A stretch of DNA of 64,000 bases from Bacilli bacterium. Its GTDB lineage: Bacteria; Bacillota_I; Bacilli_A; RF39; UBA660. A program made the translations under genes and the position numbers. Shown one piece after another: positions 31,054 through 60,204 of the stretch (position 1 is its first letter; each line of letters begins with the position of its first letter). The stretch lies in assembly GCA_017548925.1 (NCBI GenBank), contig JAFYYX010000001.1, positions 828,658-892,657 of the forward strand, read 5' to 3'. Under the pieces are notes generated by a model. That model did not search any database. It had not been told where the DNA came from and saw nothing but the letters and a program-made list of their open reading frames with translations.

Positions 31054-31056
31054 AAA

Positions 31057-31132: not shown

Positions 31133-31134
31133 AT

Positions 31135-31211
<77 letters not shown>

Positions 31212-31220
31212 ATAAATAAG

Positions 31221-31313: not shown

Positions 31314-31419
31314 AGACACAAAAAGATTATAACATATCTATTAAAAGCATGTCAATTACATTTTATGCATAAAATCGGTATTTTATACGATATTTTAAGC
31401 ATAAAATATGAAAAAAGTA

Positions 31420-31448
31420 TTGAAAAAAAATAAAATACATATTATACT
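31420..31448 (+). promoter_or_regulatory. Sigma-A-type promoter for tRNA-Leu.
   Basis: TTGAAA at 31420-31425, a 17 nt spacer, then TATACT at 31443-31448, about 30 nt upstream of the tRNA 5' end. Confidence 0.4.
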
Positions 31449-31477
31449 TAAATAGTCTTATTAATTAAGACAGTGCC

Positions 31478-31567
31478 TGCCCAAGTGGCGGAATAGGTAG
31501 ACGCACAGGACTTAAAATCCTGCGGGTGTTAAAGCTCGTGCCGGTTCAAGTCCGGCCTTGGGCACCA
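31478..31567 (+). tRNA. tRNA-Leu (TAA).
   Basis: UGCCCAAGUGGCGGAAUAGGUAGACGCACAGGACUUAAAAUCCUGCGG...long variable arm...GGUUCAAGUCCGGCCUUGGGCACCA. Confidence 0.9.
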
Positions 31568-43961: not shown

Positions 43962-43987
43962 TTATATTTTTAAATATCATATAAAGA

Positions 43988-44833: not shown

Positions 44834-44838
44834 TTTTA

Positions 44839-46984: not shown

Positions 46985-47018
46985 TTTAATATAAAAAAGG
47001 AGGATTATAATCCTCCTC
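46985..47018 (-). terminator. Intrinsic terminator overlapping the virB4 stop codon.
   Basis: A GC-rich 7 bp stem, aggagga/tcctcct, with loop ttataa, followed on the minus strand by UUUUU(A)UAUUAAAAAAA. Confidence 0.5.
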
Positions 47019-48789
47019 CAGAACCAAATGAATCAAGTTCTTCAGCAGTAGCTACAACATTTATTCTTAAACGTTTAGAACCACATACAAATAAACCTTC
47101 ACCTTGGTTATAGAACTTAATACCTTCTTTTTCGCTTTCATTTAAATCTATTAATAAAGCAAGATCATCAACAGCTTGTTTTTTAAGTCCCATAATTAAA
47201 TAATATGAGGCATTATCAAATATTGCTTTACCATGCATAATCATGTTAGGTGCAGCAAAGTCTGTTGGTTGTTGTGTAATAATAATTGTACCAGTATTAT
47301 ATTTTCTAGATCTTCTTTGAATTTGCGCTAAGAATTCAGCACCAAGTTCATTATGACTAGAAAGTAGTACATGAGCTTCATCAACATATAGAATTGTATT
47401 AATTGATTTATCAAGTGTTAATCCCCAAGCGTACTTAAGTACGTTGAAGAATAATGCATTTTTGATATTTTCATCACTATTAATAATTTCTTTAATATTA
47501 AATACAATAAAATCTGATTGAATATTAAGTGATGTATGACCTGTAAAGTAATATCTAAGTTCTTTAACAAGTGGTCTAATTCTTAGTTCAAGTCTTTCCA
47601 TAACATCTCTTTCATGAGTTTGATCAGTCATTGAAAGAAGTCTACCTTTAATAGTTGCATAAACATCATCAAATGTAGGATAATCTTCTGACTTAAATTG
47701 TGTAAAATCAGAATCAAAATCTATTTTATAACGTTTATAAGTATCTTGAACTACTTCACTAAACATTGCAAGAACATCTTCTTCAATGTTTGGTACATAG
47801 TATTTCATAAATGCTTTTAACTCTTGAAGAGTTCTAGTTAAGATTGTGTAACCTAAACCATCAGCAATATCTTCTTCATCAGCATCAACAACAACTTCAA
47901 GTGGGTTAATCATACCAAATTGTCCACCCTTACCTAAACTTACGAAGTCTCCACCAAAATTTTTGGCCATTTCTTCAAGTTCACCTTCAGGATCGATACA
48001 AACAACTTTACAACCATTTCTTAAATGAGTTCTAACTAATAATTTAGCAGAAGTTGATTTTCCTGAACCTGATGTACCAAGCATAATCATGTTAGCATTA
48101 TTTCTATTATGTTCTTTTTTAATTTGATATAAAAACTGATTAAATAATATAACTCCACCTGAGAAATCAGCTCCAAATAAGCATGAATCTCCAGGATCTT
48201 TAACACTATCGAATACAAATGGATACATTGCTGCAATTGTTGGAGAAGGAATTGGAATACCAACCCTTTCCTCGATATCTTGTTTAGGGAAAATAGGAAT
48301 TATTGATTTTAACACTTTTTCTTGTTCAAACATTAGAGAAACCGCTCTCATGCCCATAGCATCAAGATAGCCTCTTACTTGCATTTTTTTCATTTCCAAA
48401 TCTTCTTTACTATCAGCAGTTATCATTAGATGAAGTTGAAAATCAAAGTTTCTTGATTGAGTAGATGCAAGCATTGATACAAAATCTTGTAACGATTCAA
48501 TGTCTAGACGATATCTTTCACGAAGAGTATTATCCCTTTCATTTTGATATCTCAACTTTAAATCTGCAATTTCTTTATTAATCATTTTTTGCATTACGGA
48601 AAATTGAATAGGAATATGTTTAATAACGGCTTTAACGCCATTAACAGAGGTAATGTCTGATAAAAAACCTACACCAATAATATTAGGGTATGATACAACT
48701 GTCATTATTGTACAGAACTTATTTCCAATTGAAAACTCAGTTGGTCTAAAATTTAAACCTTTAGGTGCAATTTCATTTTTCAATTTCAT
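47005..48789 (-). CDS. VirB4/TrbE/CagE-family conjugative ATPase.
   Basis: Walker A MIMLGTSGSGKST. Walker B ILYVDEAHVLL. Overall DUF87/AAA_10 architecture. 594 aa. Confidence 0.85.
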   Translation of the reverse strand: MKLKNEIAPKGLNFRPTEFSIGNKFCTIMTVVSYPNIIGVGFLSDITSVNGVKAVIKHIPIQFSVMQKMINKEIADLKLRYQNERDNTLRERYRLDIESLQDFVSMLASTQSRNFDFQLHLMITADSKEDLEMKKMQVRGYLDAMGMRAVSLMFEQEKVLKSIIPIFPKQDIEERVGIPIPSPTIAAMYPFVFDSVKDPGDSCLFGADFSGGVILFNQFLYQIKKEHNRNNANMIMLGTSGSGKSTSAKLLVRTHLRNGCKVVCIDPEGELEEMAKNFGGDFVSLGKGGQFGMINPLEVVVDADEEDIADGLGYTILTRTLQELKAFMKYYVPNIEEDVLAMFSEVVQDTYKRYKIDFDSDFTQFKSEDYPTFDDVYATIKGRLLSMTDQTHERDVMERLELRIRPLVKELRYYFTGHTSLNIQSDFIVFNIKEIINSDENIKNALFFNVLKYAWGLTLDKSINTILYVDEAHVLLSSHNELGAEFLAQIQRRSRKYNTGTIIITQQPTDFAAPNMIMHGKAIFDNASYYLIMGLKKQAVDDLALLIDLNESEKEGIKFYNQGEGLFVCGSKRLRINVVATAEELDSFGSGGGL

Positions 48790-49394
48790 TATGCCATCAC
48801 CGTCCCAAAAGTTGTAGTTACTCCCCCATTTAGGAAGTTATCTAAAATCATTCTTAAATCATCGTTTGTTACTTGTGAGGAATTAAGAGAAGAACTTGCT
48901 AAACCGCTTATTATATTATGAAGTTTCTTTTGAAGAATCTCCATTTTCTTTTCTTTAAACAAAATAAAATACTCTGTATCAACAACATTATATTCTACAC
49001 CCATAAATTGATTAGCTTTACTTATATCTTGCATAATCATTTTTCTTGTATATTGATCATGGGATTTATTATACATAATTTGTAAATTAGCTAAATAAGC
49101 GTTTATATCAACGGGTCTATCAGCAACTATAAGCCAAAATTCAAAATCAACAGAATTATAAAAATTTCTTAAGTTATAAACGATAGAATCCTGCTGACCT
49201 TTTTCCAACATAAATATATTTTTTGGGTACACTTTTACACCTGTAACAAAATAACCATCATCTGTAGTAATAATACCATTAGCAATTTGCTTAACAGGTA
49301 ACCAATCATTAGTAAATTGAATATTAATTTTCTTCTTCACTAGTAGCACACCAACCTTTCCAACAATACATTCTACTTTTTGTATAATAATCAT
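48789..49394 (-). CDS. Hypothetical protein translationally coupled to virB4.
   Basis: 201 aa. Its stop overlaps the virB4 start as TAATG. It may supply the N-terminal module that the short VirB4 lacks. Its own start is uncertain because it overlaps the upstream ORF by 71 nt. Confidence 0.5.
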   Translation of the reverse strand: MIIIQKVECIVGKVGVLLVKKKINIQFTNDWLPVKQIANGIITTDDGYFVTGVKVYPKNIFMLEKGQQDSIVYNLRNFYNSVDFEFWLIVADRPVDINAYLANLQIMYNKSHDQYTRKMIMQDISKANQFMGVEYNVVDTEYFILFKEKKMEILQKKLHNIISGLASSSLNSSQVTNDDLRMILDNFLNGGVTTTFGTVMA

Positions 49395-49641
49395 AAAAAT
49401 TTGTTAATAACTGCATTACATTATGATAGTGAGGAACTGGTAATACTAGTAGGGCTGAAATAAGTCCAGGCAGTATTACCAATATTAAAAGTTTAATAGT
49501 AGATGTCTGTACTAAAAACAAAAGTATTAATGTAAATGCAACGCCCATTAAGAATACTACTAAATCAACAGCTGTAAAATATCCAAGTATTAACATTGAT
49601 TTTTTAGAGTTTGCAGGTATTAAATATTGATTTTCTTCCAC
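49324..49641 (-). CDS. VirB3-like small membrane protein.
   Basis: 105 aa with two adjacent TM helices (LILGYFTAVDLVVFLMGVAFTLILLFL and LLILVILPGLISALLVL). It sits immediately upstream of virB4, as ConD/Orf17-type proteins do. Confidence 0.55.
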   Translation of the reverse strand: MEENQYLIPANSKKSMLILGYFTAVDLVVFLMGVAFTLILLFLVQTSTIKLLILVILPGLISALLVLPVPHYHNVMQLLTNFYDYYTKSRMYCWKGWCATSEEEN

Positions 49642-49659: not shown

Positions 49660-51945
49660 CTACTTTTTACCATCATTTCTAGAAGCCAAATGCTTTTTAG
49701 AAGCAGCATCAAGTTTACTCATGCCATCTAAAGCTCTATTTCTAGAAGCTTGTAATTCATTTAGTTCTTTTTGATCTTTTAAAAATTTATCCATTTCTTT
49801 TTGAATATCAAATAATGTTCCTCTACAACCTACACCATTTTCGTCATCATATGGAATTTCTTTTTGTAATGATCTATTCTTTTCACCCTGTGCATTTGCT
49901 GCTTTTATTGCATCTCCTAAATCTTTAATAGCAGAAAATTTTGCACTAGAATCAATAGGAGTATACCCTGAAGTTCCATCAAATTTTTCGCCAAGTTTCT
50001 TATACTGTTCTTTTACAAGATCAAAGTTAGCTTTTGCATTTTTGAGTTCAACATCATCACCGGAATAATCAACTGTTCTACCATATTGGTCAACATTATC
50101 ATAATAATAACCAGCTAATTTTTTCTGTAATTTAGTATTCTCTGTAATAATTTTCTGCATCATTTCTTCAGGAAGACCTTGTTGTAAAAGTTTATTAGTT
50201 TCAGCGTTAATTGCATCAATAGATGCAGAGTTTAATGCAGCTTTTGAAGCAGAATAAGTCCATGTTTTTAAAGCTTCATTATATTTTGCAGAAAGGACAC
50301 CAGTAGTAGTTACTTTAGAATCAACTTTACCTACTTTTTCCTTACAAATATCCATTATTGTCTTTTGAGCATCAGCATAAGCTTTATCCCTTTCAATGAC
50401 AGGATCATGATCATCATTAATTTGTTTTAGATAATTATCGGCTGCTTTTTTACGAGCTTGAATCTTTCTTTCAAGTGCTTCGTTCTTATAATAGAAATCA
50501 AGTTCGTTTCCTTGTTTCATTTCTTCATATAATGAAGGCGCACCCATATTGTTACGTAATCTATTAAAAGTACCCTTACTTAATTTACCAAATACAGAAG
50601 AGTTTTTATAATCACTTGTAGAATACCATTGTTGATTAGCCATTTCATAGTCAAATGCGTATCCAGAACGTTTAAAACCACCTCTAAAGCCATTTACAAC
50701 ACCACCAGCACTCGTCATGAAGTTTCTAAATGGACTACCATGGTCACCGCGAACTCTTTCACCAATTTTTCTCGCACGATTAGCATAATGATATCCAGCA
50801 GCAGCACCAGCGATTTTGTCAATTGGTTTAATAACAGGAGCAAGAGATTCTTTAAATTCATTAAGGCGTTTGGATAAACTAAACCCATTTTCACCAAAAT
50901 CAATTCCAAATATATCAGATATTAGTTTTGGCGCTTTCTTAATAAACATACAAATACCCATAAATATAAATAATTTAGCAAAAGCTACAACAGATGTTGA
51001 TGAACCTTTAAATATAACAGCAGAAGAATCATCAAAATAATGCTTTATTAATTGAATTAAGTAAACGCCAAACACAATTATGAATATTTTAATAAAGACT
51101 TCAAGAAATGTTTTTATTGTTTCTTTAAACCAAGCCTTAAAAGCTTTATCCTGTCCTGGAATCATTAAAAGAAGTGATGGTAACGGAGCAATAATTTGTA
51201 GGAAACACAACTTAATAGTTCTAAGCCCCATATCAATACAATATACTAATAAAACATAAATTATAAATAATCCAGCTATTCCAGATAAACCAAAATTATA
51301 TTGTATCTTATTTCCTCCACCCTTTTCATTCTTAACATTTTCAGCTAATAACGGTTGAAACATTTTTATATCATTATAGGCATATACACCTTTTTCAGCC
51401 TCAATATAAGAATCTTGCAACTCTTTATTAGTTACAGGATCTTTAACATAAAACATAGTTTCAAAAATTGTAATGGAAAATTCTGATAAGTTAGTTTCCG
51501 AATTATTCATTGGTGCAGTACTAGTGCTGAACAAAATCTTAGGAATTACATTATTATTGACAACAGATTTTTGAACAGCAAAAGCAAAATTAAAAATTGT
51601 AGGAACAAAAACAACAGCAAGAATTGATAGAATAAAGTTTTGAATAAGTTTATATGCAGACATATTTCCTTTAGATAAGTTATCAGGATTTATTATTATT
51701 GTTATAAATGTATAAGCAGCAATGAATAGTGCGACGATACCAACAATAAGGTACATTCTTTGAACAAATTCAGCAACTTTATCTGCAGTTAAAATTCTTG
51801 CCTTAGCAATTGTTATAAAAACAGAATATAGCCATGAAATTATGCCATATATAATGGAATCTATAGCTAAACACAGCTTCATGAATGAAGATACTACATC
51901 TTCTCTAATCAAATCAAAGGCTGCATCCAAAATTTGAATATTCAT
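49660..51945 (-). CDS. VirB6/TrbL-like polytopic membrane protein with a large C-terminal soluble domain.
   Basis: About 370 aa with 6-8 TM helices (FLQIIAPLPSLLLMIP and others). The next ~390 aa are hydrophilic and coiled-coil. 761 aa, comparable to ConG/TcpH. Confidence 0.65.
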   Translation of the reverse strand: MNIQILDAAFDLIREDVVSSFMKLCLAIDSIIYGIISWLYSVFITIAKARILTADKVAEFVQRMYLIVGIVALFIAAYTFITIIINPDNLSKGNMSAYKLIQNFILSILAVVFVPTIFNFAFAVQKSVVNNNVIPKILFSTSTAPMNNSETNLSEFSITIFETMFYVKDPVTNKELQDSYIEAEKGVYAYNDIKMFQPLLAENVKNEKGGGNKIQYNFGLSGIAGLFIIYVLLVYCIDMGLRTIKLCFLQIIAPLPSLLLMIPGQDKAFKAWFKETIKTFLEVFIKIFIIVFGVYLIQLIKHYFDDSSAVIFKGSSTSVVAFAKLFIFMGICMFIKKAPKLISDIFGIDFGENGFSLSKRLNEFKESLAPVIKPIDKIAGAAAGYHYANRARKIGERVRGDHGSPFRNFMTSAGGVVNGFRGGFKRSGYAFDYEMANQQWYSTSDYKNSSVFGKLSKGTFNRLRNNMGAPSLYEEMKQGNELDFYYKNEALERKIQARKKAADNYLKQINDDHDPVIERDKAYADAQKTIMDICKEKVGKVDSKVTTTGVLSAKYNEALKTWTYSASKAALNSASIDAINAETNKLLQQGLPEEMMQKIITENTKLQKKLAGYYYDNVDQYGRTVDYSGDDVELKNAKANFDLVKEQYKKLGEKFDGTSGYTPIDSSAKFSAIKDLGDAIKAANAQGEKNRSLQKEIPYDDENGVGCRGTLFDIQKEMDKFLKDQKELNELQASRNRALDGMSKLDAASKKHLASRNDGKK

Positions 51946-51974: not shown

Positions 51975-53171
51975 TTAAAGGCCAGGAATACTTGGAAATT
52001 CACATTTGCCTTGTGCTCCTAATAAAGTTAACAAATAACTTATTATTATCGGAAGCATAAATAATAGTAACGCAAATATAAGTCTAATTATAGTTTTTTT
52101 GTTAGTTTTGCTTATTAAATCTGCATCAGAAGAAGCAATAACTTTAACATAATCAATAATAGAAACGACAATTAGAATAAGTGGCGCTAAAAATTTTATA
52201 AATTTAAAAGTCTTATCCAAATAATAAGCAAAATCACCTGCTTTACTTGGATCACCAAGAATCTTTTGACATTGATTTTTTGCATTTGAAGAATCACTAG
52301 AAGTATCGGTTGAATCAATTATTTTAAGAGCTTTACTAGCTAAGCTAGTTAAATTTTTGAAAAATGTTCGCTTTTCAGTATCAGTATTTGCTTCATAGCA
52401 AGTTCCACCCTCACTATATCTATCAATAATTAATTGTGTAGGAGTCTTGTAATCAGCATTTTTAAACTTTTTAATGTAATTACTATGTTTAGAATAATTA
52501 TTAACTATATTATCAAAAGTATAATAAAATTCATTAAGTATACTTTCTTCCATGCATTCAGACGAAATTAAAGATGATGCATTGTTTTTTACAGCAGAAT
52601 GTTTTAAAACTCCAATAACAGCAAAGCAATCAGTACCAACGCAAGTGAAAATATTTGAAGTAATAGATTTCTCAATATCATGAGCTCTGCTAACTAAATT
52701 ATTCATAGATATCTGAGTAGCATACATTTGTAATTTAAGAAGCGTTTTTTGTTTTTCTAATCCAGAAGTTAATATAGCTATTTGAGGTGGACATGTACCA
52801 TAACTATCTAAATATGACAAAAGATTTTCAGTTTCAGATTGTGTAATGGTTTTAGGAGATTTCCATCCGGTTTCGGTGTAATATAAAAATCCATCTTTAA
52901 TTGTACCAGATGAGCCAACAGTTACTTGCGCACCTCCTGTAAAAGTTTGTTTAAATTGTGAAATAAATTTATATCCTGTTGTAGTATTAGGTTTGATATA
53001 TATAATAGCATTTTCATCAGAATTTTTAGAGTTACCAATTTGCCAAGAAATTCCTTCATAATAACACAAAGTTTTATTAATATCTAAACCACCACCACGG
53101 CCAGCATATACATTTTTTATTCCTAAAACTAAGGCACAAATTGTAATAGTAATTAAAACCTTAATTTTCAT
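51975..53171 (-). CDS. Secreted Cys-containing protein with a C-terminal VirB2-like double-TM module.
   Basis: Signal peptide MKIKVLITITICALVLGIKNVYA. The C-terminal ~85 aa, FLAPLILIVVSIIDYVKVIASSDADLISKTNKKTIIRLIFALLLFMLPIIISYLL, is paralogous to the 127 aa protein. Confidence 0.6.
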   Translation of the reverse strand: MKIKVLITITICALVLGIKNVYAGRGGGLDINKTLCYYEGISWQIGNSKNSDENAIIYIKPNTTTGYKFISQFKQTFTGGAQVTVGSSGTIKDGFLYYTETGWKSPKTITQSETENLLSYLDSYGTCPPQIAILTSGLEKQKTLLKLQMYATQISMNNLVSRAHDIEKSITSNIFTCVGTDCFAVIGVLKHSAVKNNASSLISSECMEESILNEFYYTFDNIVNNYSKHSNYIKKFKNADYKTPTQLIIDRYSEGGTCYEANTDTEKRTFFKNLTSLASKALKIIDSTDTSSDSSNAKNQCQKILGDPSKAGDFAYYLDKTFKFIKFLAPLILIVVSIIDYVKVIASSDADLISKTNKKTIIRLIFALLLFMLPIIISYLLTLLGAQGKCEFPSIPGL

Positions 53172-53192
53172 AATTACACCTCATTTCATTTA

Positions 53193-54557
53193 TTATTTTG
53201 AATTTTTAATATAATAGTCGCAAGCATCATCACCTGCAAAGCATAATGCACATTTTTTAAAATCACCATTACTCGCAGTTCTATCTTTATCACTTTGTGC
53301 AAATGATATAATTGAATTAATAATAGTTGGAATTAAGAATATTACCAATCCGATAATAATCTTCTTAATAAATAATTGTGTTGTTTTTTCAATCGCATCT
53401 TGGTTATCAGCAAATGCTGCTTTTCCATAATCAATAGAACCATAAATTATTAAAAGTATAGGAACCAATATTTTTGCTATTGTAATAATAATATGAATTA
53501 TTTTAAGTGTTTTTAAAACTGCTGAATCGTCACAAAATGTAAATGGTTTATCAGCCGCTTCATTATACTTTTGCTTACATAAAGCAGAATTTGGATTTAG
53601 CTTACAATATCCATATGTTCCAGGGATATTAGGGTTTCCAGAAGACCCTGAATTAGTTTCTTTATCATACAAGGAAACAGCTGAAAAATATATGTTACCA
53701 TCAATATGATAAGCTCTATAAAGAGGAATTGATCTAGTTTCAAACGCTGTATGGACCTCATATGTTATAGGCATAACAGTATCTTTAACATCATTATAAG
53801 TATAATATGTCTTTGAGGTACAACAATAGCCTCCATTTTTGCATTTAAAATCTTGAATTCTTATATTACTATTAACTTGTTCTGAATTAATATATGGTAC
53901 AACTTCAAACGCAGTAGCAATCATCTTATATAGTCCCATTGTTCCACTTTTAGCAATAACCTCATAATTAATCGCTAGTTTATCCCCATGATAATTATTT
54001 TCTTCATCACCATAATAACACATAAGTTTACCAGTTTTATAACAAGAATTTGCACTAACAGTATATGACTTTGAAACTAAGGAATCAATATTAGATCCAG
54101 CAGTATTTAATGTAATATTTGTGATTTTATATTTATCACTAGAAGTTTCATTATATAAAATACCTAGTTGAGGACATTCTTTTAGCTTTTCAATTGCACT
54201 TTTCTTGCTTCCATTAACAGTGTAATTATAAATATCAAAAGGACCAGTAACATTATATCCACCAGTAACTTTATCTATAGAAAATTTGCTTCCTTCAATA
54301 GAAAATGTGACATTCGTAGTAAGAGAATTTACTTCATTTACCGGATCTGTAATTGTCATAACCAAATTTTGATCTTTAGTATCAGTCAATTGAGACGAGC
54401 CGGAAGCAAAAGATGCCTTGCCATAATCATCAAAAGAAACAACATTCCTCATAACATTACTCAAAGAATACTTACATGTCTTTGTTTCAGCAAATACATT
54501 GTTTTTCATAAAAAAGAATGAAAATATCATTATTAATAAAAGGCTTTTTTTCTTCAT
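53193..54557 (-). CDS. Secreted Cys-rich protein with a C-terminal VirB2-like double-TM module.
   Basis: Signal peptide MKKKSLLLIMIFSFFFMKNNVFA. 16 Cys. The C-terminal part, IIITIAKILVPILLIIYGSIDYGKAAFADNQDAIEKTTQLFIKKIIIGLVIFLIPTIINSII, has the same motif as the 127 aa protein. Confidence 0.6.
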   Translation of the reverse strand: MKKKSLLLIMIFSFFFMKNNVFAETKTCKYSLSNVMRNVVSFDDYGKASFASGSSQLTDTKDQNLVMTITDPVNEVNSLTTNVTFSIEGSKFSIDKVTGGYNVTGPFDIYNYTVNGSKKSAIEKLKECPQLGILYNETSSDKYKITNITLNTAGSNIDSLVSKSYTVSANSCYKTGKLMCYYGDEENNYHGDKLAINYEVIAKSGTMGLYKMIATAFEVVPYINSEQVNSNIRIQDFKCKNGGYCCTSKTYYTYNDVKDTVMPITYEVHTAFETRSIPLYRAYHIDGNIYFSAVSLYDKETNSGSSGNPNIPGTYGYCKLNPNSALCKQKYNEAADKPFTFCDDSAVLKTLKIIHIIITIAKILVPILLIIYGSIDYGKAAFADNQDAIEKTTQLFIKKIIIGLVIFLIPTIINSIISFAQSDKDRTASNGDFKKCALCFAGDDACDYYIKNSK

Positions 54558-54611
54558 AAAACTTACACCTACACTTATTACATAATTATACCAAAAAAAA
54601 TATTGAAAATA

Positions 54612-54644
54612 AATAAAAAAACAACCTGTTTGGTTGTTTTTTAA
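54612..54644 (-). terminator. Intrinsic terminator or attenuator downstream of the VirB2-like gene.
   Basis: A 10 bp stem, aaaaacaacc/ggttgttttt, with loop tgttt, flanked by an A-run and a T-run. Confidence 0.55.
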
Positions 54645-54650
54645 ATCTAA

Positions 54651-55034
54651 TTATTTATTTGCTTCTTGAACAGCACTGCTACAACTTGATCCATTTGGAG
54701 ATGTAACACATTTTTGGCAAACATTATATCGATATTTTTTTCCATTTTCAGAACTACCATCTAAGTCTTTGAAACTATCAATTAAATTGAAAATAGCTCC
54801 TACTAAGAATGGAATGAAGAAAATAACAACACCAGCAATTAATCTTTTAATTAATGTTTGAGTTGCTTTTTCAACAGCATCATCTTTTGACGCAATAACT
54901 GCCTTTCCTAAATCAATCATACCAAAAACAATTAATAAAATTGGAATAACAATTTTAAAAACCATTAAAATTCTACCAACTAATTGCCAAATTGGTGAAG
55001 ATTGAACACAAAATGCTAAATCACCTAATAACAT
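54651..55034 (-). CDS. VirB2-like candidate conjugative pilin (small two-TM protein).
   Basis: 127 aa. TM1 is ILMVFKIVIPILLIVFGMIDLGKAV. It is followed by DDAVEKATQTLIKRLIAG, then TM2 VVIFFIPFLVGAIFNLI, then a Cys-containing tail. Confidence 0.55.
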   Translation of the reverse strand: MLLGDLAFCVQSSPIWQLVGRILMVFKIVIPILLIVFGMIDLGKAVIASKDDAVEKATQTLIKRLIAGVVIFFIPFLVGAIFNLIDSFKDLDGSSENGKKYRYNVCQKCVTSPNGSSCSSAVQEANK

Positions 55035-55126: not shown

Positions 55127-55366
55127 CTAAAAAGTGCTTTGCATATGTTGAATTAATGCATCAATTACCTTTTCATTTTTTTCATACTCAATAAGTTCAA
55201 GAGTATCAATTCCATCATCAGTATTTATTACTTTAAAAAAATATAATGTATCGTCAGTATCATCATCTGATGAAGCTGCGAAATATTTTACACCTTCATA
55301 AGTAACAGAATCAACAAGATTAAAACTTAATCCATTTTCTAAAGTTACATTTTGACCTTTTTTCAT
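55127..55366 (-). CDS. DUF1292 (UPF0473)-family small acidic protein.
   Basis: 79 aa. NVTLENGLSFNLVDSVTYEGVKYFAA...DDTLYFFKV...DDGIDTLELIEYEKNEKVIDAL fits the DUF1292 pattern. Confidence 0.55.
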   Translation of the reverse strand: MKKGQNVTLENGLSFNLVDSVTYEGVKYFAASSDDDTDDTLYFFKVINTDDGIDTLELIEYEKNEKVIDALIQHMQSTF

Positions 55367-57384
55367 TATAAGTTTCTACCTCCATGATTCCTATTGTATT
55401 CATTAATAATATTTTTCTTTATCTCTTCTAACTTAGCTTGAGCTCTTATAAATATATTTTCATGCATAAAATGATGCTTTATTTTTTCATATTTTTTTTG
55501 ATCATTTATATAAATATCTCTAAATTTTGTAAATATCTTTTCTTTAGAATCAATTAGTGCGTTTTTAATTTTAGTTTTTTGCTGTGATATTTTATCAATA
55601 GTATTATCTTTAATATCAATTACCTTAAGTTCTATTGCATCACCAGTATTATTACAAAATGCTATTAAAACGTCTCTTAGAGTATAATTTTCCAAATCGT
55701 TTTGTTGCCCCATATCTTCAAAAGTTTGTTTCTCTGAATTGGTTTCATCGCTAGGTACAAAAGGTATGCCTGGCATAGTAGGATCATTTTGAACAATATT
55801 AAATTGTTCCTTTAAAGCATCATCATTCTTAGTTTCATCAGGTCCAAAATCATCTTCCTTTGAATTAGTTTCTTTTGGAACATAATCAGGAATAGTTGAC
55901 ATTCCAAGAATTGTAGCATCATTTTGATTATCAGTTGAATTATTTCTAGATTGTTCAGCTTCTATCTGAGATGCAAAACTTTGTGATAGATTAATAGTTG
56001 ATTGTTCTAAACTAGATTTACTATTTTCTGATTCAGGAACAGCTGGTTCTTCTACTACCTGCTCAGATTGTTCATTATTTAATTCATGCTCAGATTGATC
56101 CTTAATTGTTTCTTCATCATTTGCTTCTTCAATAGACTCAGAAGTACTATCTTTACCTAATGGTGTAACATCATTACTTATAACATTTTCGTTATTTAAA
56201 GAATCATTTGTTATTTCTTTATTATCATTATCTAAATAATTTACTTCTTCAGAACTAGATTTGCTATTTTCTTCAGAAGTATTTACACTTGAATTTTCAT
56301 TAGTAAAACTAACAGTTCTATTATTTACTAAGTTAAAGAATTTTGATGTTCTTTCTCTACTATCATTTTCTAAAACTATTTCGTTTTCTTCTAAATAATT
56401 TCTAAATTCAAATTCTTTTTCAATAATCTCATAAAAGAAACTATGAAATGCTCTTGAACATTTATCAATTTCTTTTCCATTACTATCAATATCAATAAAA
56501 TCAGTTTTATTTAAGATTCCATTTTCAAAAGCTTCTTTACAATTAGAAGTAATATTAAGCATTGATTTTAAAAATTCATTTCTCATATTAACAAAATTTA
56601 TTTCGATATTACCTTTATTATAAACATCTAAAATATTTTGTTTTTGGATTTTAATATCTTCTTTTAATTCATGTTTCTTTTCATTTTCTTGTTTTAATAA
56701 ATTAGTTAGTTCCATAACTTCATTATAATCAGAAGATCTAACTATTTTATCTTGATATTCTTTAATTTTTTTATTACATTCATTTAGTTCATCTTCGTAA
56801 TCACCTAATAAAGTAGCAGGATATGATAATTCATCTATCCAACTATGAATATCTTTTAAATTATTACTTAACACTTTAAAATTATCTCTTAAATATCTAT
56901 ATTTATTTAAATTATCTAAATTATGTTCAGTTGTTATAGCACTTTCTAATTTAGAAATTTTGTCATTAATAAAATATTCAAAAGTATTCTTATAGTTTTT
57001 TGTGTATGCATTTGCATACTCATTAGATGTATTTCTTAAATCATTTATTTTTAAAGTGATTGCTTTTTCAACCTCATTTAATAATAAAACTTTATCAAGT
57101 TTAAGCTTAGGATCTTTTTTGATTTTATATTTACTTCCAAGTTTTCTAAGTTCATTATATGACATACCTTCCAAATTTTTTAGAAGTTCTTCAGCACTGG
57201 TTATCTCGTTTTGAATACTTAAAATATTGTTTGTAAAAGTATTAAATCTAAAATCACCATAAAAAGTGTGACTAGACTCATTAACTAAACTAGTTAAAAT
57301 ATCGATTAACTTATCATCGGCTTTTTGTTTAACCACTTCAACTTCTCTGTCAGTTAATAATGTATTTTCTATATTATATTCCAT
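55366..57384 (-). CDS. Large acidic hypothetical protein (672 aa) with no TM segment.
   Basis: Coiled-coil N-terminal half. A central Ser/Glu/Asn/Asp-rich low-complexity region. A helical C-terminus. Its stop overlaps the DUF1292 gene start. Confidence 0.55.
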   Translation of the reverse strand: MEYNIENTLLTDREVEVVKQKADDKLIDILTSLVNESSHTFYGDFRFNTFTNNILSIQNEITSAEELLKNLEGMSYNELRKLGSKYKIKKDPKLKLDKVLLLNEVEKAITLKINDLRNTSNEYANAYTKNYKNTFEYFINDKISKLESAITTEHNLDNLNKYRYLRDNFKVLSNNLKDIHSWIDELSYPATLLGDYEDELNECNKKIKEYQDKIVRSSDYNEVMELTNLLKQENEKKHELKEDIKIQKQNILDVYNKGNIEINFVNMRNEFLKSMLNITSNCKEAFENGILNKTDFIDIDSNGKEIDKCSRAFHSFFYEIIEKEFEFRNYLEENEIVLENDSRERTSKFFNLVNNRTVSFTNENSSVNTSEENSKSSSEEVNYLDNDNKEITNDSLNNENVISNDVTPLGKDSTSESIEEANDEETIKDQSEHELNNEQSEQVVEEPAVPESENSKSSLEQSTINLSQSFASQIEAEQSRNNSTDNQNDATILGMSTIPDYVPKETNSKEDDFGPDETKNDDALKEQFNIVQNDPTMPGIPFVPSDETNSEKQTFEDMGQQNDLENYTLRDVLIAFCNNTGDAIELKVIDIKDNTIDKISQQKTKIKNALIDSKEKIFTKFRDIYINDQKKYEKIKHHFMHENIFIRAQAKLEEIKKNIINEYNRNHGGRNL

Positions 57385-57483
57385 AAGTAATCACAATCCC
57401 TTACTATGTATTAATTATATAAATAAAAATAAATAATGTAAAGATTAAGAGTGTAAAATTTTAAATAAAAAAATGATTAAATT

Positions 57484-57801
57484 CTATTTAATCATTCTTT
57501 CTCTTTCATTAATAGTTTCTTTGGGTAAAGATTTAACTTGATTAACTAATTCTTCAGATAATTCTTTCATATTAGTATCATCTCTTTTAATTAATCTTTC
57601 AATAATATCCAATTCTTTTTTTAAAGCATTATATTTGTCATCTAGTGTAAATATGTATTTTCTATACGGAAAAGAAGATGGAACGCTATTTGAAGATATA
57701 TTAGAAATCCTAATTAAATATGAAATAGTATTAGTTGCAAGATCTAAATTAGATTTATTTGGTAAATATAATCCATCTGCAGGATATTTAAATTTTGTCA
57801 T
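57484..57801 (-). CDS. Small helical protein (105 aa). T7SS-associated candidate.
   Basis: I re-called the start at the internal Met, which has a perfect AGGAGG RBS 9 nt upstream. The track ORF began at 57867 and overlapped the upstream gene by 80 nt. The C-terminal half is helical and Lys/Glu-rich. Confidence 0.5.
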   Translation of the reverse strand: MTKFKYPADGLYLPNKSNLDLATNTISYLIRISNISSNSVPSSFPYRKYIFTLDDKYNALKKELDIIERLIKRDDTNMKELSEELVNQVKSLPKETINERERMIK

Positions 57802-58105
57802 TATAAGTAGCCTCCTGCTCTTTTTTTGCTTGTTTAAGTAAATGATTAGATATTTCAGCAGAATCATTCGTTAATTTTATTGGTATATTTCTTAGTAGAT
57901 TACCAAATTTAATATATTTTTTCTTTTCAAGCGCAACATGATTAAAATAGTAATTAGCTTGGTTACCTATCCACTCTTTAGTTATATTAGGTACTTGATC
58001 TAATCTTTTAAAAAATGCATTTATTAAATCAGTATATTCATCTGCATATTTTATTAAATCTTTACTGATTTCTTCAACTCTAACAGTATCAAAATTAGAT
58101 ATCAT
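57788..58105 (-). CDS. WXG100-like small protein (105 aa).
   Basis: The central motif is TKEWIGNQANYYF (W-x-G at residues about 44-46). The size and helical character match WXG100/Esx-like proteins. Confidence 0.5.
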   Translation of the reverse strand: MISNFDTVRVEEISKDLIKYADEYTDLINAFFKRLDQVPNITKEWIGNQANYYFNHVALEKKKYIKFGNLLRNIPIKLTNDSAEISNHLLKQAKKEQEATYNDKI

Positions 58106-58514
58106 AATCGTTCACCTCTGAATACACACTAAATTGATCGCCACTATTTTTAGTTACAATAGTTTTTGTGGCGTTTTTAGCTTTAGTAACAGTCTTCTTA
58201 GCTGACGCTGCAGCGGTTTCTTCAGCTGCCTTAATTTTATTAATTTGATCATTACAGTATTTAATTTCCTTATCAATGGCAGGTATAATAGTCTTAAACA
58301 AATAACTTCTAATATTATTAATATTAAGTGAAATAGTATATAAACGCTTTGATAATGCAGTTTCATCATTATTAACAAGGTAATTTGAAGAAACATTATT
58401 TTTTATTTTACCAGTATATCCTTTAAAGTCAGCCAACTTACTTACCATACTCACAATTTTACTTCTTAGAGCTTGATAATTCTTTTTCTCTTCTTGAAGA
58501 TCATAAATTGTCAC
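58095..58514 (-). CDS. Small helical protein (139 aa). T7SS-associated candidate.
   Basis: Its ORF overlaps both neighbours by 14-20 nt, suggesting a translationally coupled series. Predicted coiled coil. Lys/Ala-rich C-terminus. Confidence 0.5.
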   Translation of the reverse strand: MTIYDLQEEKKNYQALRSKIVSMVSKLADFKGYTGKIKNNVSSNYLVNNDETALSKRLYTISLNINNIRSYLFKTIIPAIDKEIKYCNDQINKIKAAEETAAASAKKTVTKAKNATKTIVTKNSGDQFSVYSEVNDYDI

Positions 58515-58872
58515 TATGATTCAACTCCTCTACATAATCATTTAACTTTTTAGTAATTAAATTGAAATCATCACTTTTTTGTGCAAAAACATTAGCCATA
58601 GTTGTGGCGCCTTCATGCATTTTTCGATTTAATGCAGTTAAATCGTTAGCATAACTAATAACATTATTCTTTACTGTATAAAACTTAGGCCTTAAATAAG
58701 TATTATAATAAGCATTAATCTCATCATATGGTTTACCTTGATAAACAGATTTTAACTCCGAAAATCTATCATCATATTTATTTAGAATAATATTTACCTT
58801 ATCTGCCATATTAATTATTTCTACGATTAAATGGGCTAAATCTTTTTCGTTAATACCACCTACAACGTCCAT
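58501..58872 (-). CDS. Small helical protein (123 aa). T7SS-associated candidate.
   Basis: ORF with an AGGTGAT RBS. Helical, with no TM segment. Confidence 0.5.
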   Translation of the reverse strand: MDVVGGINEKDLAHLIVEIINMADKVNIILNKYDDRFSELKSVYQGKPYDEINAYYNTYLRPKFYTVKNNVISYANDLTALNRKMHEGATTMANVFAQKSDDFNLITKKLNDYVEELNHSDNL

Positions 58873-58998
58873 ATATAATCACCTCAAAACACATCTACTA
58901 TAAACATATTGTACCTTATTTAAAATAATAAAAAGATGATTAAAATAATATTTGTCAAAAAATTTACAAAAAAAATACTGCAAAAAGCAGCATTTTTA

Positions 58999-59502
58999 TT
59001 AATGTTGACCTGAATCAATAGATACAGGGCCAGAATTATCATCAATTCGAATTTGTTTAGCAGCATCTCTTAATGATTTAGCATCATCTTGAACAAGCCC
59101 TGAAATATCTGATGAAGCCGCACGATATTTTTCTTTAATAGCGGCAAGTTCTTTCTTTTCATCAATCAAAACAGAAACGTAAGCAGTCATTATATCTTTT
59201 ACTGCTTTTAAGAATATTTGTGCAGCCTCAAGTGCTGGACCTTTTAATCCCTTTTCAAGAATAATATCAGCATTAAAACCATTAATAGTATCCTGAGCTT
59301 TTGTTATGTATGTATTTATACTAGAAATAAGGCTATCAACGCCTGGTTCACTTATACCAGTAAAACTTGTTTCAGGAGCTTTCGCAAACTCATCAAAATA
59401 AGACGTAGCTAAGTTTTCAAGTGTCATTTTAGCGCCACGTAAATTAGCACCAATAGTAACGCCCCACTTGTCTTCCGAATAATTTTCAAAAGAAATTCCC
59501 AT
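58999..59502 (-). CDS. Hypothetical helical protein (167 aa), translationally coupled to the WXG100 gene.
   Basis: Its start overlaps the upstream gene's stop. It contains KWGVTIGAN and alpha-helical Ala/Lys-rich segments. Confidence 0.5.
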   Translation of the reverse strand: MGISFENYSEDKWGVTIGANLRGAKMTLENLATSYFDEFAKAPETSFTGISEPGVDSLISSINTYITKAQDTINGFNADIILEKGLKGPALEAAQIFLKAVKDIMTAYVSVLIDEKKELAAIKEKYRAASSDISGLVQDDAKSLRDAAKQIRIDDNSGPVSIDSGQH

Positions 59503-59831
59503 TATAAATCATCTCCACTTCTATCACTAACGATTGTTGCATCAACGGTATCCATATCCTCAATAATTTGATTAACACAGTCTTTAAAAACCATAAAAGC
59601 TTGATCTAATCCATAACTAACTTTACGTCTATCGTCTTGAATATTTTTAACAAATTGATCAGCAGAAGCACCAACCCAAACATCTTTGATAGATCTTTCT
59701 ATTCCATCAGCACCCTCAAGTAAAACTTGTTGTGCTGCACCTATAACTTCAGAATTAATTTGGCCTATAGCATTCTTCATACCCTCAACATCATATCCTA
59801 TTGTTGAATTATCAATAGATAACATATACAT
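59502..59831 (-). CDS. WXG100-family (EsxA-like) protein.
   Basis: 109 aa. The central motif DVWVGASADQF is W-x-G followed by an A..F helix turn, as in EsxA (WEGQAFSRF). RBS AAAAGGAGGAT. First gene after the intergenic gap downstream of the YukD-like gene. Confidence 0.6.
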   Translation of the reverse strand: MYMLSIDNSTIGYDVEGMKNAIGQINSEVIGAAQQVLLEGADGIERSIKDVWVGASADQFVKNIQDDRRKVSYGLDQAFMVFKDCVNQIIEDMDTVDATIVSDRSGDDL

Positions 59832-59952
59832 CCTCCTTTTTGTGTACCAGCAAGTACGCTTTTACTTTACAATCATTGTAATTCAAATAAATCTATAAAT
59901 AAACCAGAATTCCAAAAATTAACACTAATTTTACACAAAAAAGAGCCTATAT

Positions 59953-60204
59953 TTATATATATATAAGCTCAGTTCCGTTTTTAATATCAGTATTTCTAAG
60001 AAGAGTTCTTGGATCATAAGAAACTCCGGTATCAGCGTTAAATAAAATTCCATTATTTTTAATTGGATACACTTTAGATAAATCATTTATAATTTTAGAA
60101 AGTTTATAACATATATCGCCTACATATTTATTTATAGGTAAATATATTTCATATTTTTCTTCAATTTCAGGAACAAGTAATGTTACTAATACTTTATATT
60201 CCAT
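59953..60204 (-). CDS. esaB: YukD/EsaB-like ubiquitin-fold T7SS protein.
   Basis: 83 aa. MEYKVLVTLLVPEIEEKYEIYLPINKYVGDICYKLSKI...GTELIYI gives a beta-grasp pattern like YukD. Its start overlaps the essC stop. Confidence 0.7.
   Translation of the reverse strand: MEYKVLVTLLVPEIEEKYEIYLPINKYVGDICYKLSKIINDLSKVYPIKNNGILFNADTGVSYDPRTLLRNTDIKNGTELIYI

Follow-up and report, generated by a model that had tools for sequence, protein, structure and literature searches.

Three adjacent genes on the minus strand of the window (the whole 64,000-nt stretch of DNA analysed here) encode proteins of 127, 454 and 398 aa which have one two-helix membrane module in common. On balance we think it probable that these genes are an array of VirB2-like pilins in which the minor pilins are modular, belonging to a type IV secretion system (T4SS) of the monoderm type. 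The 127-aa protein (54651..55034) is a leaderless stand-alone pilin-type hairpin (S type), while the 454-aa protein (53193..54557) and the 398-aa protein of the divergent Z type (51975..53171) each have a signal peptide and an ectodomain ahead of a pilin-type hairpin at the C-terminus. If this reading is true, the array fills the VirB2-like pilin and VirB5-like adhesin or tip roles that are said to be lacking in Gram-positive T4SSs. Ectodomain-bearing pilin arrays, though widespread, seem to be undescribed for walled Gram-positive bacteria.

The shared membrane hairpin

The sequence-only reading of this DNA had quoted peptides of three ORFs, and all three were found on the minus strand where it had placed them. 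Its proposal of a shared C-terminal double-TM module was confirmed by three methods. In BLASTP with compositional adjustment, the 127-aa protein was 47% identical to the 454-aa protein over 72 aa (E 1e-19) and 26% identical to the 398-aa protein over 82 aa (E 1e-8), and the two large proteins were 34% identical over 58 aa (E 6e-9). A module family HMM, built on 120 stand-alone homologues, gave 84.9 bits for the C-terminus of the 454-aa protein and 37.9 bits for that of the 398-aa protein, against maxima of 13.0 and 11.1 bits in 1000 residue shuffles and 14.7 and 8.2 bits for the reversed sequences. The families of the two large proteins were aligned by hhalign with a probability of 98.1% (E 1e-13), and the alignment was confined to the module. 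Among the ORFs of the 64-kb window, the family HMM detected no module copies beyond these three.

Hydropathy analysis showed two hydrophobic cores in each of the three proteins. In the 127-aa protein, which has no leader and only about 15 residues ahead of helix 1, the cores lie at residues 22-40 and 65-83 with a positively charged loop between them; Cys9 precedes helix 1, and Cys106, Cys109 and Cys118 come after helix 2. This protein also gave weak, spurious Pfam matches to 7TM receptor families, so its composition is TM-biased.

Both large proteins begin with Sec-type signal peptides (MKKKSLLLIMIFSFFFMKNNVFA followed by E and MKIKVLITITICALVLGIKNVYA followed by G), as the sequence-only reading had said. 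In the 454-aa protein the signal peptide (residues 1-23) is followed by a beta-rich, Cys-containing ectodomain (24-335, nt 53553-54488) and by a complete pilin module including a Cys tail (336-454, nt 53196-53552); its AF2 model (pLDDT 75.8) has helices at 345-382 and 386-419. In the 398-aa protein, signal peptide 1-23 is followed by ectodomain 24-297, a beta N-domain and then a helical domain, and by hairpin module 298-398 (nt 51978-52280) with the single flanking residues Cys301 and Cys390. Its AF2 model also ends in a C-terminal helical hairpin. Fold comparison gave no match of the ectodomains to a known fold, and the hairpin module had no similarity to any solved structure. Two details of the earlier description had to be corrected: the number of Cys in the 454-aa protein is 13 rather than 16 (there are nine in the 398-aa protein, one of them in the signal peptide, and four in the 127-aa protein), and the hairpin stretches quoted as the ends of the 454- and 398-aa proteins are followed by tails of 36 and 16 aa, each with a conserved Cys.

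Over 31 diverse modules, Cys, Pro and Phe positions were invariant, and the Cys pair flanking the hairpin was invariant in all architectures. The connecting loop has a net charge of +2.4 and both flanks of the hairpin are net negative. According to the positive-inside rule and the flanking Cys, the predicted topology is N-out and C-out, with the ectodomain outside the cell.

Relation to T4SS pilins

The 127-aa protein matched PF18895 (T4SS_pilin) with 28.1 bits, above the gathering threshold of 26.6 (E 2.1e-6, 69 of 71 profile positions), and all 48 aligned stand-alone homologues (48/48) matched it as well. PF18895 describes a two-helix hairpin in a T4SS cluster, and VirB6-, VirB3- and VirB4-like genes are directly downstream. 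The 454- and 398-aa proteins showed no match to PF18895, either at full length or as isolated C-termini, and the model picks up only 15 of 74 fused relatives; their modules are therefore tied to this family only via the lineage-specific HMM (85 and 38 bits) and hhalign.

There was no similarity to canonical VirB2/TrbC profiles: hhalign against eight annotated VirB2/TrbC proteins gave probabilities of at most 4%, with a small VirB2 alignment, from Alphaproteobacteria alone, which remote homology could escape. None of the 48 members matched PF04956, and one weakly matched T4SS_CagC (E 0.006). We use the label "VirB2-like" because of PF18895 membership, gene position and topology, not because of VirB2 profile similarity. 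The claim of a VirB2-like pilin held for the pilin family and not for the canonical VirB2/TrbC profiles. The claimed fusion of a hairpin to extracellular domains is in line with the signal peptides, ectodomains, C-terminal hairpins and fast evolution, and the outside location is the predicted one. The T4SS context was borne out, since VirB6-, VirB3-, VirB4- and VirD4-like genes follow in the same operon. The sequence-only reading had also named two outcomes that would speak against it, mere hydrophobic composition and a holin family; both were tested and neither occurred. As to a holin or other phage membrane protein, the 127- and 398-aa proteins had no PHROG match at E <=0.01, and no phage family was matched. 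The 454-aa protein gave one meaningless 14-residue PHROG match.

Organization of the T4SS locus

The operon is read on the minus strand in the order 672-aa gene, 79-aa gene, 127-aa pilin, terminator-like hairpin, 454-aa gene, 398-aa gene, VirB6, VirB3, split VirB4, hydrolase, lipoprotein and VirD4. A candidate operon promoter (57414..57442) is the best sigma-70-like site upstream of the 672-aa gene, with an 11/12 consensus match; promoter-like sites in the region are as many as expected from shuffles, and this one is a consensus match alone. The conserved block is opened by a fast-evolving acidic protein of 672 aa (55366..57384), which has no match in Pfam, NCBIfam or PHROG and has an orthologue of 41% identity in the equivalent position of the related locus L001. 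It is followed by a 79-aa DUF1292-like protein (55127..55366; PF06949, 24.1 bits against a cutoff of 24), 64% identical to its L001 orthologue; the gene is directly upstream of the pilin gene and equally placed in L001, L002 and L085. In the 93-nt gap after the 127-aa gene there is a terminator-like hairpin (54616..54642) with an 11-bp stem and then a T-run. Five terminator-like sites were found in the region versus 0.7 expected.

The stop codon of the 398-aa gene is 29 nt ahead of the gene for a polytopic VirB6-like protein of 761 aa (49660..51945), which matches the NCBIfam conjugal transfer family MMCAP2_0566 (39 bits, E 5.6e-10, below the family cutoff). Its C-terminal half is large and hydrophilic, and the protein is fast-evolving (41.5% identity to the L001 orthologue). 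In locus L095 the gene at this position has a weak PF04610 TrbL annotation. The 105-aa VirB3/PrgI/TcpE-like small membrane protein (49324..49641) has weak PrgI and TcpE matches of about 15 bits, below cutoff; it is 81% identical to the L001 orthologue and its position is kept in all T4SS loci. The VirB4 ATPase (47005..49394; AAA_10, P-loop_TraG and CagE_TrbE_VirB matches) is split into a 201-aa TraC-like N-terminal piece (48789-49394) and a 594-aa ATPase (47005-48789). The N-terminal piece overlaps the VirB3 gene, has a VirB4_plasma N-terminal match and is annotated as TraC-like in related loci. VirB4 genes were also matched on 1725 plasmid records, foremost those of Enterococcus, Bacillus and Staphylococcus, at an identity of about 28%. 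The distal block (41583..46941) encodes a 700-aa cell-wall hydrolase-like protein (44839-46941; NlpC/P60 and SpoIID at about 20 bits, both below cutoff), a 281-aa lipoprotein with a lipobox-like N-terminus (43988-44833) and a 792-aa VirD4-type coupling protein (41583-43961; T4SS-DNA_transf, 183 bits).

Upstream of the operon (57484..64000), also on the minus strand, are six small ORFs, one with a W-x-G motif, and a giant FtsK/SpoIIIE ATPase gene which is cut by the window end. In L085 its full length is 1528 aa and housekeeping genes precede it; a similar FtsK gene is upstream of the T4SS also in L086 and L097.

The locus is best explained as a chromosomal T4SS of the monoderm type (MPF_FATA-like), its host being an uncultured gut Bacilli bacterium with a cell wall and low GC content. 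The VirB4 ATPase and VirD4 coupling protein expected of the MPF_FATA type were both found by profile matches. For the VirB6-, VirB3- and hydrolase-like components, all matches are below curated cutoffs, and gene order and membrane topology fit. A conjugative element has a relaxase and an integrase or replication module beside its T4SS; in the ORFs scanned here between housekeeping genes on both sides (from window position 41.5 kb to L085), no known relaxase or integrase family was matched, though a novel relaxase might be encoded, for instance, by one of the unannotated ORFs. The GC content of the cluster is similar to that of its flanks.

Distribution and gene order

The 127-aa pilin had 1170 homologues, and no fewer than 397 species genomes encode a relative; almost every one of the best 80 loci bears the label of an uncultured Bacilli or Tenericutes-like MAG. 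Where at least 8 kb of downstream sequence was available, 38 of 49 loci carried two or more module genes, and 11 of 49 were orphan pilins with no T4SS gene within 10 kb. All 35 loci with VirB6 or VirB4 carried arrays of 2-8 module genes. The gene order follows a simple rule. An S-type pilin opened the array in 41/41 loci, and a Z-type gene closed it, directly abutting VirB6, in 40/41. Between them were 0-6 more module genes, mostly with signal peptide and ectodomain; 123 of 140 extended array proteins had signal-peptide-like N-termini, and many array members had an ectodomain of 100-450 aa ahead of the hairpin. Of 55 first pilin genes, 32 were followed by a terminator-like hairpin, as against 16 of 104 later array genes (Fisher p = 5e-8).

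The module family comprised 10,825 protein clusters, and 69 of the best 150 had N-terminal extensions of at least 100 aa. Among the loci examined, C-terminal module fusions were found solely inside arrays. N-terminal copies were fused to M23 peptidase, GDSL/SGNH hydrolases, alpha/beta-hydrolases and a C39-like peptidase, and the two such fusions looked up were both among cell-division or other housekeeping genes. It means that the hairpin can also serve as a plain membrane anchor.

Sequence variation of the array proteins

Within families, identity is 61-68% in the module and 23-43% in the ectodomain, and the module is the most conserved stretch relative to its surroundings. In a comparison of the window genome with L001, identity was 82-94% for housekeeping proteins and 77-81% for VirB3, the VirB4 N-terminal piece and the pilin, while it was 41-46% for the 454-aa, 398-aa, VirB6-like and 672-aa proteins. 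In a pair of near-identical strains, housekeeping proteins are 99% and pilin, VirB3 and VirB4 100% identical, while the Z-type protein is 65% and VirB6 78% identical; in the fused pilin of this pair an identity of 54% is confined to the C-terminal part, and a different domain stands at the N-terminus. Such very fast evolution of ectodomains is as expected for exposed recognition or adhesion modules.

Proposed function and alternative explanations

We propose that Sec would export the ectodomains, and that the hairpin would stay in the membrane with both termini outside and the Lys/Arg-rich loop inside. The Cys before helix 1 and the Cys after helix 2 might form a putative extracytoplasmic disulfide clamping the hairpin, where disulfide formation in an anaerobic gut Firmicute is our assumption. 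The terminator-like hairpin is a candidate attenuator, which might keep the first pilin in excess over the downstream genes. The VirB4/VirB6 machinery would then pull the abundant 127-aa subunit out of the membrane, and it might polymerise into a wall-spanning stalk or short pilus. The 454- and 398-aa proteins would use the same hairpin to join in low stoichiometry, either at the tip or at the base, and the 398 type may dock on VirB6. The hypervariable ectodomains would thus be displayed and recognise or bind target cells. A helical fibre of the VirB2 type would have no room for ectodomains of 270-310 aa on all of its subunits, so incorporation should be sparse or terminal. All steps after membrane insertion, namely the fibre and the entry of the large proteins, we infer by analogy with VirB2 systems. 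Counting against a pilin array are the missing similarity to canonical VirB2/TrbC profiles and to solved structures, the failure of PF18895 on the 454 and 398 modules, and the existence of hydrolase anchors and orphan pilins.

The hairpin might instead be a T4SS membrane anchor or docking module, so that the proteins stay round VirB6 as channel or scaffold without a fibre, and the ectodomains reach into or through the wall like VirB8-, PrgL-like or wall-spanning accessory proteins. We consider this a real but rather doubtful possibility. It agrees with the strict adjacency to and co-variation with VirB6 and with the absent VirB2 similarity; according to the literature, the T4SSs of Gram-positive bacteria function without pili, and VirB2 homologues are required for transfer in many Gram-negative systems even without a pilus (PMC12857230). 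However, arrays of up to eight genes are hard to square with a channel part of fixed stoichiometry, and PF18895 membership, the tandem small leaderless subunit and the attenuator-like hairpin suggest a highly expressed structural monomer. It is unlikely, in our opinion, that the ectodomain proteins are self/non-self determinants for entry exclusion or mating-pair specificity, merely placed by the pilin-like hairpin beside VirB6 as partners of its variable extracellular domain. Exclusion factors paired with a VirB6-type partner are known from ICEBs1 (YddJ-ConG) and SXT (Eex-TraG). Hypervariability between strains is limited to the fused pilin, the Z-type protein and VirB6, the rest of the machinery being 99-100% conserved, the pattern between species (window genome and L001) is equivalent, and the Z-type gene abuts VirB6 almost always. 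But the known exclusion proteins are small lipoproteins or inner-membrane proteins that occur singly, whereas up to eight paralogues with a pilin module stand in an array here, and conjugation by a system in which no relaxase was found is doubtful. This explanation overlaps with the pilin array, because both make the ectodomains surface recognition determinants.

Another explanation, which we regard as very improbable, takes the module for a general-purpose two-TM membrane anchor of small-genome Bacilli that is mechanistically unconnected with the T4SS, and its three copies here for the product of local duplication. The N-terminal fusions to peptidases and hydrolases, with two examples amid housekeeping genes, and the orphan stand-alone copies would fit it, whereas the array in 35/35 T4SS loci with fixed order and position, the membership of the stand-alone protein in a curated T4SS pilin family, the conservation of the module above all its surroundings and the restriction of C-terminal fusions to arrays speak against it. 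The chance of a mere likeness of hydrophobic segments, or of a holin-like or unrelated family, is practically nil. The TM-biased composition of the 127-aa protein could suggest it, but it is refuted by the shuffle and reversal controls, BLASTP (E 1e-19 to 1e-8), hhalign (E 1e-13), the invariant residues over 31 modules and the absence of PHROG or holin matches.

Comparison with known systems

The nearest counterpart of the pilin array proposed here is in Patescibacteria (CPR), for example Ca. Southlakia epibionticum and TM7x. Searches with PF18895 and PF04956 revealed 2-11 VirB2-like genes in tandem in their MPF_FATA-like T4SSs, and such arrays are essential in one species (PMC12102498; PMC12857230). 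The T4SSs of both groups have MPF_FATA-related VirB4, VirB3/PrgI, VirB6 and VirD4, are chromosomal and mostly without relaxase, and carry tandem divergent small pilin genes of PF18895 near virB4 in small-genome monoderm hosts. Unlike them, the host here is of a walled Bacilli lineage, where reviews state that VirB2 homologues are absent, and the Bacilli arrays have many Sec-exported ectodomains (100-450 aa) ahead of the hairpin, a leaderless core pilin, an invariant flanking Cys pair and a fixed grammar with S first and Z beside VirB6. The texts consulted on CPR arrays gave no description of ectodomain-bearing pilins.

Canonical pilins of diderms, VirB2/TrbC (PF04956), TraA and TrhA, are likewise small two-helix hairpins encoded beside virB3, virB4 and virB6, and they have the termini outside and a basic loop inside, as is predicted for the proteins here. 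Bartonella Trw and Anaplasma have also multiplied variant copies of their pilins. The subunit would be covalently closed in both cases, by head-to-tail cyclisation in VirB2, TrbC and TrhA and by the putative disulfide here. The present proteins differ by having no detectable sequence or profile similarity, helices with much Ile, Leu, Phe and Pro in place of Gly/Ala, a connecting segment of about 20 charged residues where the canonical pilins turn tightly, and a core subunit without long leader peptide beside Sec signal peptides in the 454- and 398-aa proteins. We know of no natural ectodomain fusions in the canonical families.

The 398-type gene is immediately upstream of virB6, as is virB5 in MPF_T systems, and if its product, as proposed, docks on the VirB6 platform and makes contact with the target, the role would resemble that of the VirB5/TraC minor pilin or tip adhesin. 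VirB5 is a soluble periplasmic helical protein without pilin hairpin, and no similarity to it was detected. In type IV pili, such as PilB and PilC of Streptococcus sanguinis, a pilin polymerisation module carries a bulky domain and the minor subunit displays an adhesin. These pilins have an unrelated fold and machinery (class III signal peptide, T2SS-like), with an N-terminal pilin module and the grafted domain C-terminal. The design principle is common, and the order of module and domain is reversed here.

The 127-aa protein also weakly resembles the N-terminal hairpin region of the Mycoplasma ICE family Mbov_0396 (NCBIfam NF045889, 306 positions; E 1.2e-4, 21.7 bits against a family cutoff of 70), in which the module is N-terminal. 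The name of this family adjoins that of the ICE VirB4 family Mbov_0397, and the VirB4 N-terminal piece and VirB6-like protein of the window also match Mollicutes ICE families.

Organization of the gene cluster

The three genes were co-directional on the minus strand, beginning with the 127-aa ORF (54651-55034), followed by the 454-aa ORF (53193-54557) in the middle and the 398-aa ORF (51975-53171) as the last. Counted from the 127-aa ORF, the gaps were only 93, 21 and 29 nt, and the last one precedes a 761-aa polytopic protein. This protein was VirB6-like, matching the Mollicutes "MMCAP2_0566 conjugal transfer" family with a score below the cutoff. The other genes downstream of the trio encoded a VirB3/PrgI/TcpE-like protein (105 aa), a split VirB4 (201 aa and 594 aa), an NlpC/P60- and SpoIID-like hydrolase, a lipoprotein and the VirD4 coupling protein, after which housekeeping genes began. 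On the upstream side there were a DUF1292-like gene (79 aa), a 672-aa gene with unassigned function, six small ORFs and a 1528-aa FtsK/SpoIIIE ATPase, and beyond it again housekeeping genes (RNase J, AAA protein, DAP dehydrogenase and S11 peptidase). Within the ~27 kb of this bounded cluster, there were no matches to relaxase or integrase families. The GC content was ~27% across the window, and the composition had no break at the T4SS locus.

The VirB3-like gene and the split VirB4 together occupied 47005-49641. The TraC-like N-terminal piece of VirB4 (201 aa, 48789-49394) had a 71-nt overlap with the end of the VirB3-like gene and abutted the 594-aa ATPase gene, and the same split was kept in all related loci.

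Genes for a class A PBP, D-Ala carboxypeptidase, alanine racemase and YunB show that the host has a cell wall. Its VirB4 gene was ~28% identical to genes on 1725 plasmid records, with Enterococcus, Bacillus and Staphylococcus leading, but the locus, the 454-aa protein and the pilin were without relatives in DNA and protein searches of 72,556 plasmids. The chromosomal position of the T4SS was shared with the close relative L001 alone and was not conserved across the 80 species loci, and therefore long-term vertical inheritance of the T4SS is not established.

The shared pilin-type module

The sequence-only reading proposed that the C-termini of the three proteins are paralogous, and this was borne out by all tests applied. 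In composition-adjusted BLASTP, the 127-aa protein matched the 454-aa protein with E 1e-19 (47% over 72 aa) and the 398-aa protein with E 1e-8 (26% over 82 aa), and the two larger proteins matched each other with E 6e-9 (34% over 58 aa). A module HMM built from 120 stand-alone homologues scored 84.9 bits on the C-terminus of the 454-aa protein and 37.9 bits on that of the 398-aa protein, while the maxima from 1000 shuffles of the same segments were 13.0 and 11.1 bits, and the reversed segments gave 14.7 and 8.2 bits, respectively. When the profiles of the 454 family (13 sequences) and the 398 family (14 sequences) were aligned, the match had 98.1% probability and E 1e-13 and was restricted to the module. 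Nearly all of the 127-aa protein, with its Cys-containing tail, is found within the 454-aa protein (HMM positions 7-116), and the 398-aa protein holds the hairpin core alone (positions 24-86). No further ORF in the window carried the module. The same reading counted 16 Cys in the 454-aa protein; the correct numbers are 13 in this protein, nine in the 398-aa protein and four in the 127-aa protein.

The 127-aa protein belonged to PF18895 (T4SS_pilin), with 28.1 bits against a gathering threshold of 26.6 bits, and all 48 aligned homologues of the stand-alone pilin also matched PF18895, with no match to PF04956 (TrbC/VirB2 pilins) among them. Classical VirB2/TrbC membership was not supported: the comparison with VirB2/TrbC pilins that the first reading had called for, run with hhalign against eight annotated plasmid VirB2/TrbC proteins, found no similarity (probability ≤4%). 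The profile of the stand-alone pilin gave only chance matches to the PDB sequences.

Each protein had two hydrophobic cores, modelled by AF2 as two helices of ~35 residues each with a short turn between them. In 31 modules covering all architectures, the stretch connecting the two cores was positively charged (net +2.4, with a mean of 5.1 Lys/Arg) and both flanks were net negative. Sec signal peptides were predicted on the 454-aa and 398-aa proteins, and conserved Cys residues were located on both sides of the hairpin, before helix 1 and after helix 2. Because of this charge asymmetry, the signal peptides and the positions of the flanking Cys, the predicted topology is indicated to be N-terminus out, loop in and C-terminus out, which is also the membrane topology of VirB2-type pilins.

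Only three columns were invariant in the alignment of the 31 modules. Two of them were Cys residues closely flanking the hairpin, namely C9, C342 and C301 of the 127-aa, 454-aa and 398-aa proteins just ahead of helix 1, and C106, C436 and C390, respectively, just behind helix 2. The third was a Phe within helix 2. The Cys pair may form a disulfide clamp, and such a putative clamp would have a function similar to that of head-to-tail cyclisation in VirB2, TrbC and TrhA.

Pilin arrays in related genomes

The stand-alone pilin had 1170 homologues at E ≤1e-3 in the word-indexed database, and relatives were present in at least 397 species-representative genomes. The best 80 loci were nearly all from MAGs labelled as Bacilli, Tenericutes, Mycoplasma sp., Anaeroplasma, Coprovivens, Ventrenecus or Erysipelotrichaceae. 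Among the 49 loci with at least 8 kb downstream, 38 had two or more module genes and 11 were orphan pilin loci, and arrays of 2-8 genes were found in all 35 loci with VirB6 or VirB4. There were 239 module ORFs, 99 of them stand-alone and 140 with an N-terminal extension (30-100 aa in 39, 100-250 aa in 35 and ≥250 aa in 66); a signal-peptide-like start was found in 123 of the 140 extended ORFs. An exhaustive profile search of 1.84 billion cluster representatives gave 10,825 module clusters at E ≤1e-3 and 7,903 at E ≤1e-10. The best 150 of the 10,825 clusters comprised 49 stand-alone modules, 23 with extensions of 45-99 aa, 69 with extensions of ≥100 aa, six with internal or multiple modules and three with N-terminal modules.

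Typing of the modules with three HMMs revealed a strict order of genes. The first array gene was the leaderless stand-alone S type in 41 of 41 loci. In 40 of 41 loci, the module on the gene abutting VirB6 was of the divergent 398 type (Z), at a median distance of 4 nt, and the smallest array was S then Z. Following this grammar, the trio in the window is S (127 aa), S-like with ectodomain (454 aa) and Z (398 aa).

In the gap 3' of the 127-aa gene there was an attenuator-like (terminator-like) hairpin at 54642-54616 on the minus strand. Among related loci, 32 of 55 first pilin genes were followed by such a hairpin, compared with 16 of 104 later array genes (Fisher p = 5e-8). This bias fits a major subunit that would be made in excess over the minor ones.

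Orphan stand-alone pilin genes, whose surroundings of 10 kb in both directions contained no T4SS gene, were present in L016, L018, L028, L038, L042, L064, L070, L075 and L083, at about 10001-10390 in each locus. In L018, the upstream genes had no family matches and the downstream genes encoded an aminotransferase, thioredoxin and an HD-domain protein. The hairpin was also found at the N-terminus of proteins with a C-terminal M23 peptidase, GDSL/SGNH hydrolase, alpha/beta-hydrolase or C39-like peptidase (L003 10001-11227; L004 8769-10571; proteins P0015-P0017, P0019-P0021, P0201 and P0214). The genes in L003 and L004 were among cell-division and housekeeping genes, outside T4SS loci.

Ectodomains and their variation

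The AF2 models of the 454-aa and 398-aa proteins had pLDDT of 75.8 and 70.8. The ectodomain was beta-rich in the former, and in the latter a beta N-domain was followed by a helical domain. Neither ectodomain matched a known fold or a family in Pfam, NCBIfam or PHROG. Recognisable domains were found in only a few of 74 fused relatives, and all of them were hydrolases. Homology between the two ectodomains of the window was not supported (hhalign probability 1.4%).

Both ectodomains had a "C-x-Y" soon after the signal peptide and a "C-P" ~90-100 residues on. They were at residues 28-30 (window 54473-54476) and 128-129 (54173-54178) in the 454-aa protein, and at residues 36-38 (53061-53066) and 127-128 (52788-52793) in the 398-aa protein. 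The motif "C-x-aromatic ... C-P" occurred in 35 of the 74 fused relatives against 3.2 expected from shuffles. This suggests that a small domain with disulfide bonds recurs in these proteins, but profile comparison gave no confirmation of it. Some proteins (P0018 and the 507-aa protein of L096) had the motif twice.

The pairwise identity within the 454 family was 43% for the ectodomain versus 68% for the module, and within the 398 family 23% versus 61%. Compared with L001, the related genome whose T4SS occupies the corresponding chromosomal position, housekeeping proteins of the window were 82-94% identical and VirB3, the VirB4 N-terminal piece and the pilin 77-81%, while the 454-aa, 398-aa, VirB6-like and 672-aa proteins were only 41-46% identical. 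In two strains with ~99% identical housekeeping proteins (L095 and L096), the pilin, VirB3 and VirB4 were 100% identical, the fused pilins (387 versus 507 aa) could be aligned only over the C-terminal 245 aa with 54% identity, the Z-type protein was 65% identical and VirB6 78% over part of its length. Therefore the variation is concentrated in the predicted extracellular parts, which are hypervariable. The T4SS genes compared were at 10471-14722 in both strains, and the N-terminal domain of the fused pilin was replaced. The alleles of the two strains look like the result of cassette-like replacement of exposed parts.

Possible function of the pilin array

The best-supported explanation is that the three genes encode pilins of the PF18895 type, arrayed within a monoderm T4SS, in which the leaderless protein would be the major subunit and the modular proteins the minor ones. 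Through the common hairpin, the minor pilins would enter the assembly of the major subunit or attach to the VirB6 platform, and their hypervariable ectodomains would be exposed for target recognition. We infer that the subunits may be closed by the disulfide, extracted from the membrane and polymerised, that the minor pilins may be placed at the tip or the base, and that they may act as adhesins.

The main rival is that the proteins stay in the membrane as channel parts associated with VirB6, and the second is that they are exclusion or specificity determinants paired with VirB6. That the hairpin is just a generic membrane anchor would agree with the orphan pilins and with the N-terminal hairpin fusions to hydrolases in housekeeping neighbourhoods, but the association with T4SS loci is invariant, so this explanation is weakened.

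A 2025 review stated that VirB2 and VirB5 are absent from Gram-positive T4SSs, with the exception of Patescibacteria, in which a 6-gene VirB2-like array is essential (PMC12857230). A survey of Patescibacteria found arrays of 2-11 pilins with PF04956 and PF18895, and it leaves the origin of these pilins open because of their "absence in MPF_FATA", the monoderm-type T4SS class (PMC12102498). Full-text literature searches turned up neither such arrays nor T4SS pilins with fused ectodomains described for Bacilli, whether RF39-like or other. The pilin family itself is already known and present in Pfam, and the system is not categorically new. The new features are the host group, the modular architecture, the putative Cys clamp and the S-to-Z grammar.

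It means that the same pilin family as in Patescibacteria is now found in walled Bacilli, in ordered arrays adjoining VirB6, and about half of the best-scoring family members have the hairpin fused to large ectodomains with an unmatched fold. These are a candidate for how a monoderm T4SS contacts target cells, and they offer, in abundant gut bacteria, a large and still unexploited collection of likely recognition domains. The ratio of major to minor subunits, the disulfide clamp, the contact of the Z-type protein with VirB6 and allele-specific partner recognition are testable predictions.

We further speculate, quite tentatively and with more doubt than confidence, that in walled small-genome gut Bacilli (RF39-/"Tenericutes"-like MAGs) a relaxase-less chromosomal MPF_FATA-type T4SS builds a true VirB2-type filament from disulfide-closed subunits, with modular minor pilins carrying hypervariable and structurally novel ectodomains. 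If it is true, this would be the first conjugative-type pilus in Firmicutes, and the essential pilin arrays of Patescibacteria would likely have come from these Bacilli or their ancestors. It would also point to a common way of life in two unrelated groups with reduced genomes, in which the T4SS serves cell-to-cell interaction and not classical conjugation.

Other genes near the arrays

Two glycosyltransferase family 2 genes were located just upstream of the pilin array in L086 (8072-9917) and in L097, and might be involved in pilin or surface glycosylation. In L097 they were preceded by seven tandem paralogues of 216-239 aa with no family matches, the whole region being 1807-9123.

The FtsK/SpoIIIE ATPase region upstream of the T4SS operon (window 57484-64000, minus strand) was cut by the window end. 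After the gene came several small ORFs in a row (83-167 aa), none with a family match, and one of them (57788-58105) had a central W-x-G motif ("EWIGNQ"). This combination is reminiscent of EssC with WXG100 substrates in type VII secretion. A similar FtsK gene with an ORF of ~86 aa was upstream of the T4SS in two more distant genomes (L086, 1-4769; L097, 1-1686) and absent from L001; the region with the full-length gene was at 4713-12019 in L085. The housekeeping part of the window also had two tRNA clusters unrelated to the T4SS locus, with seven genes (26323-26991) and five genes (30978-31567).
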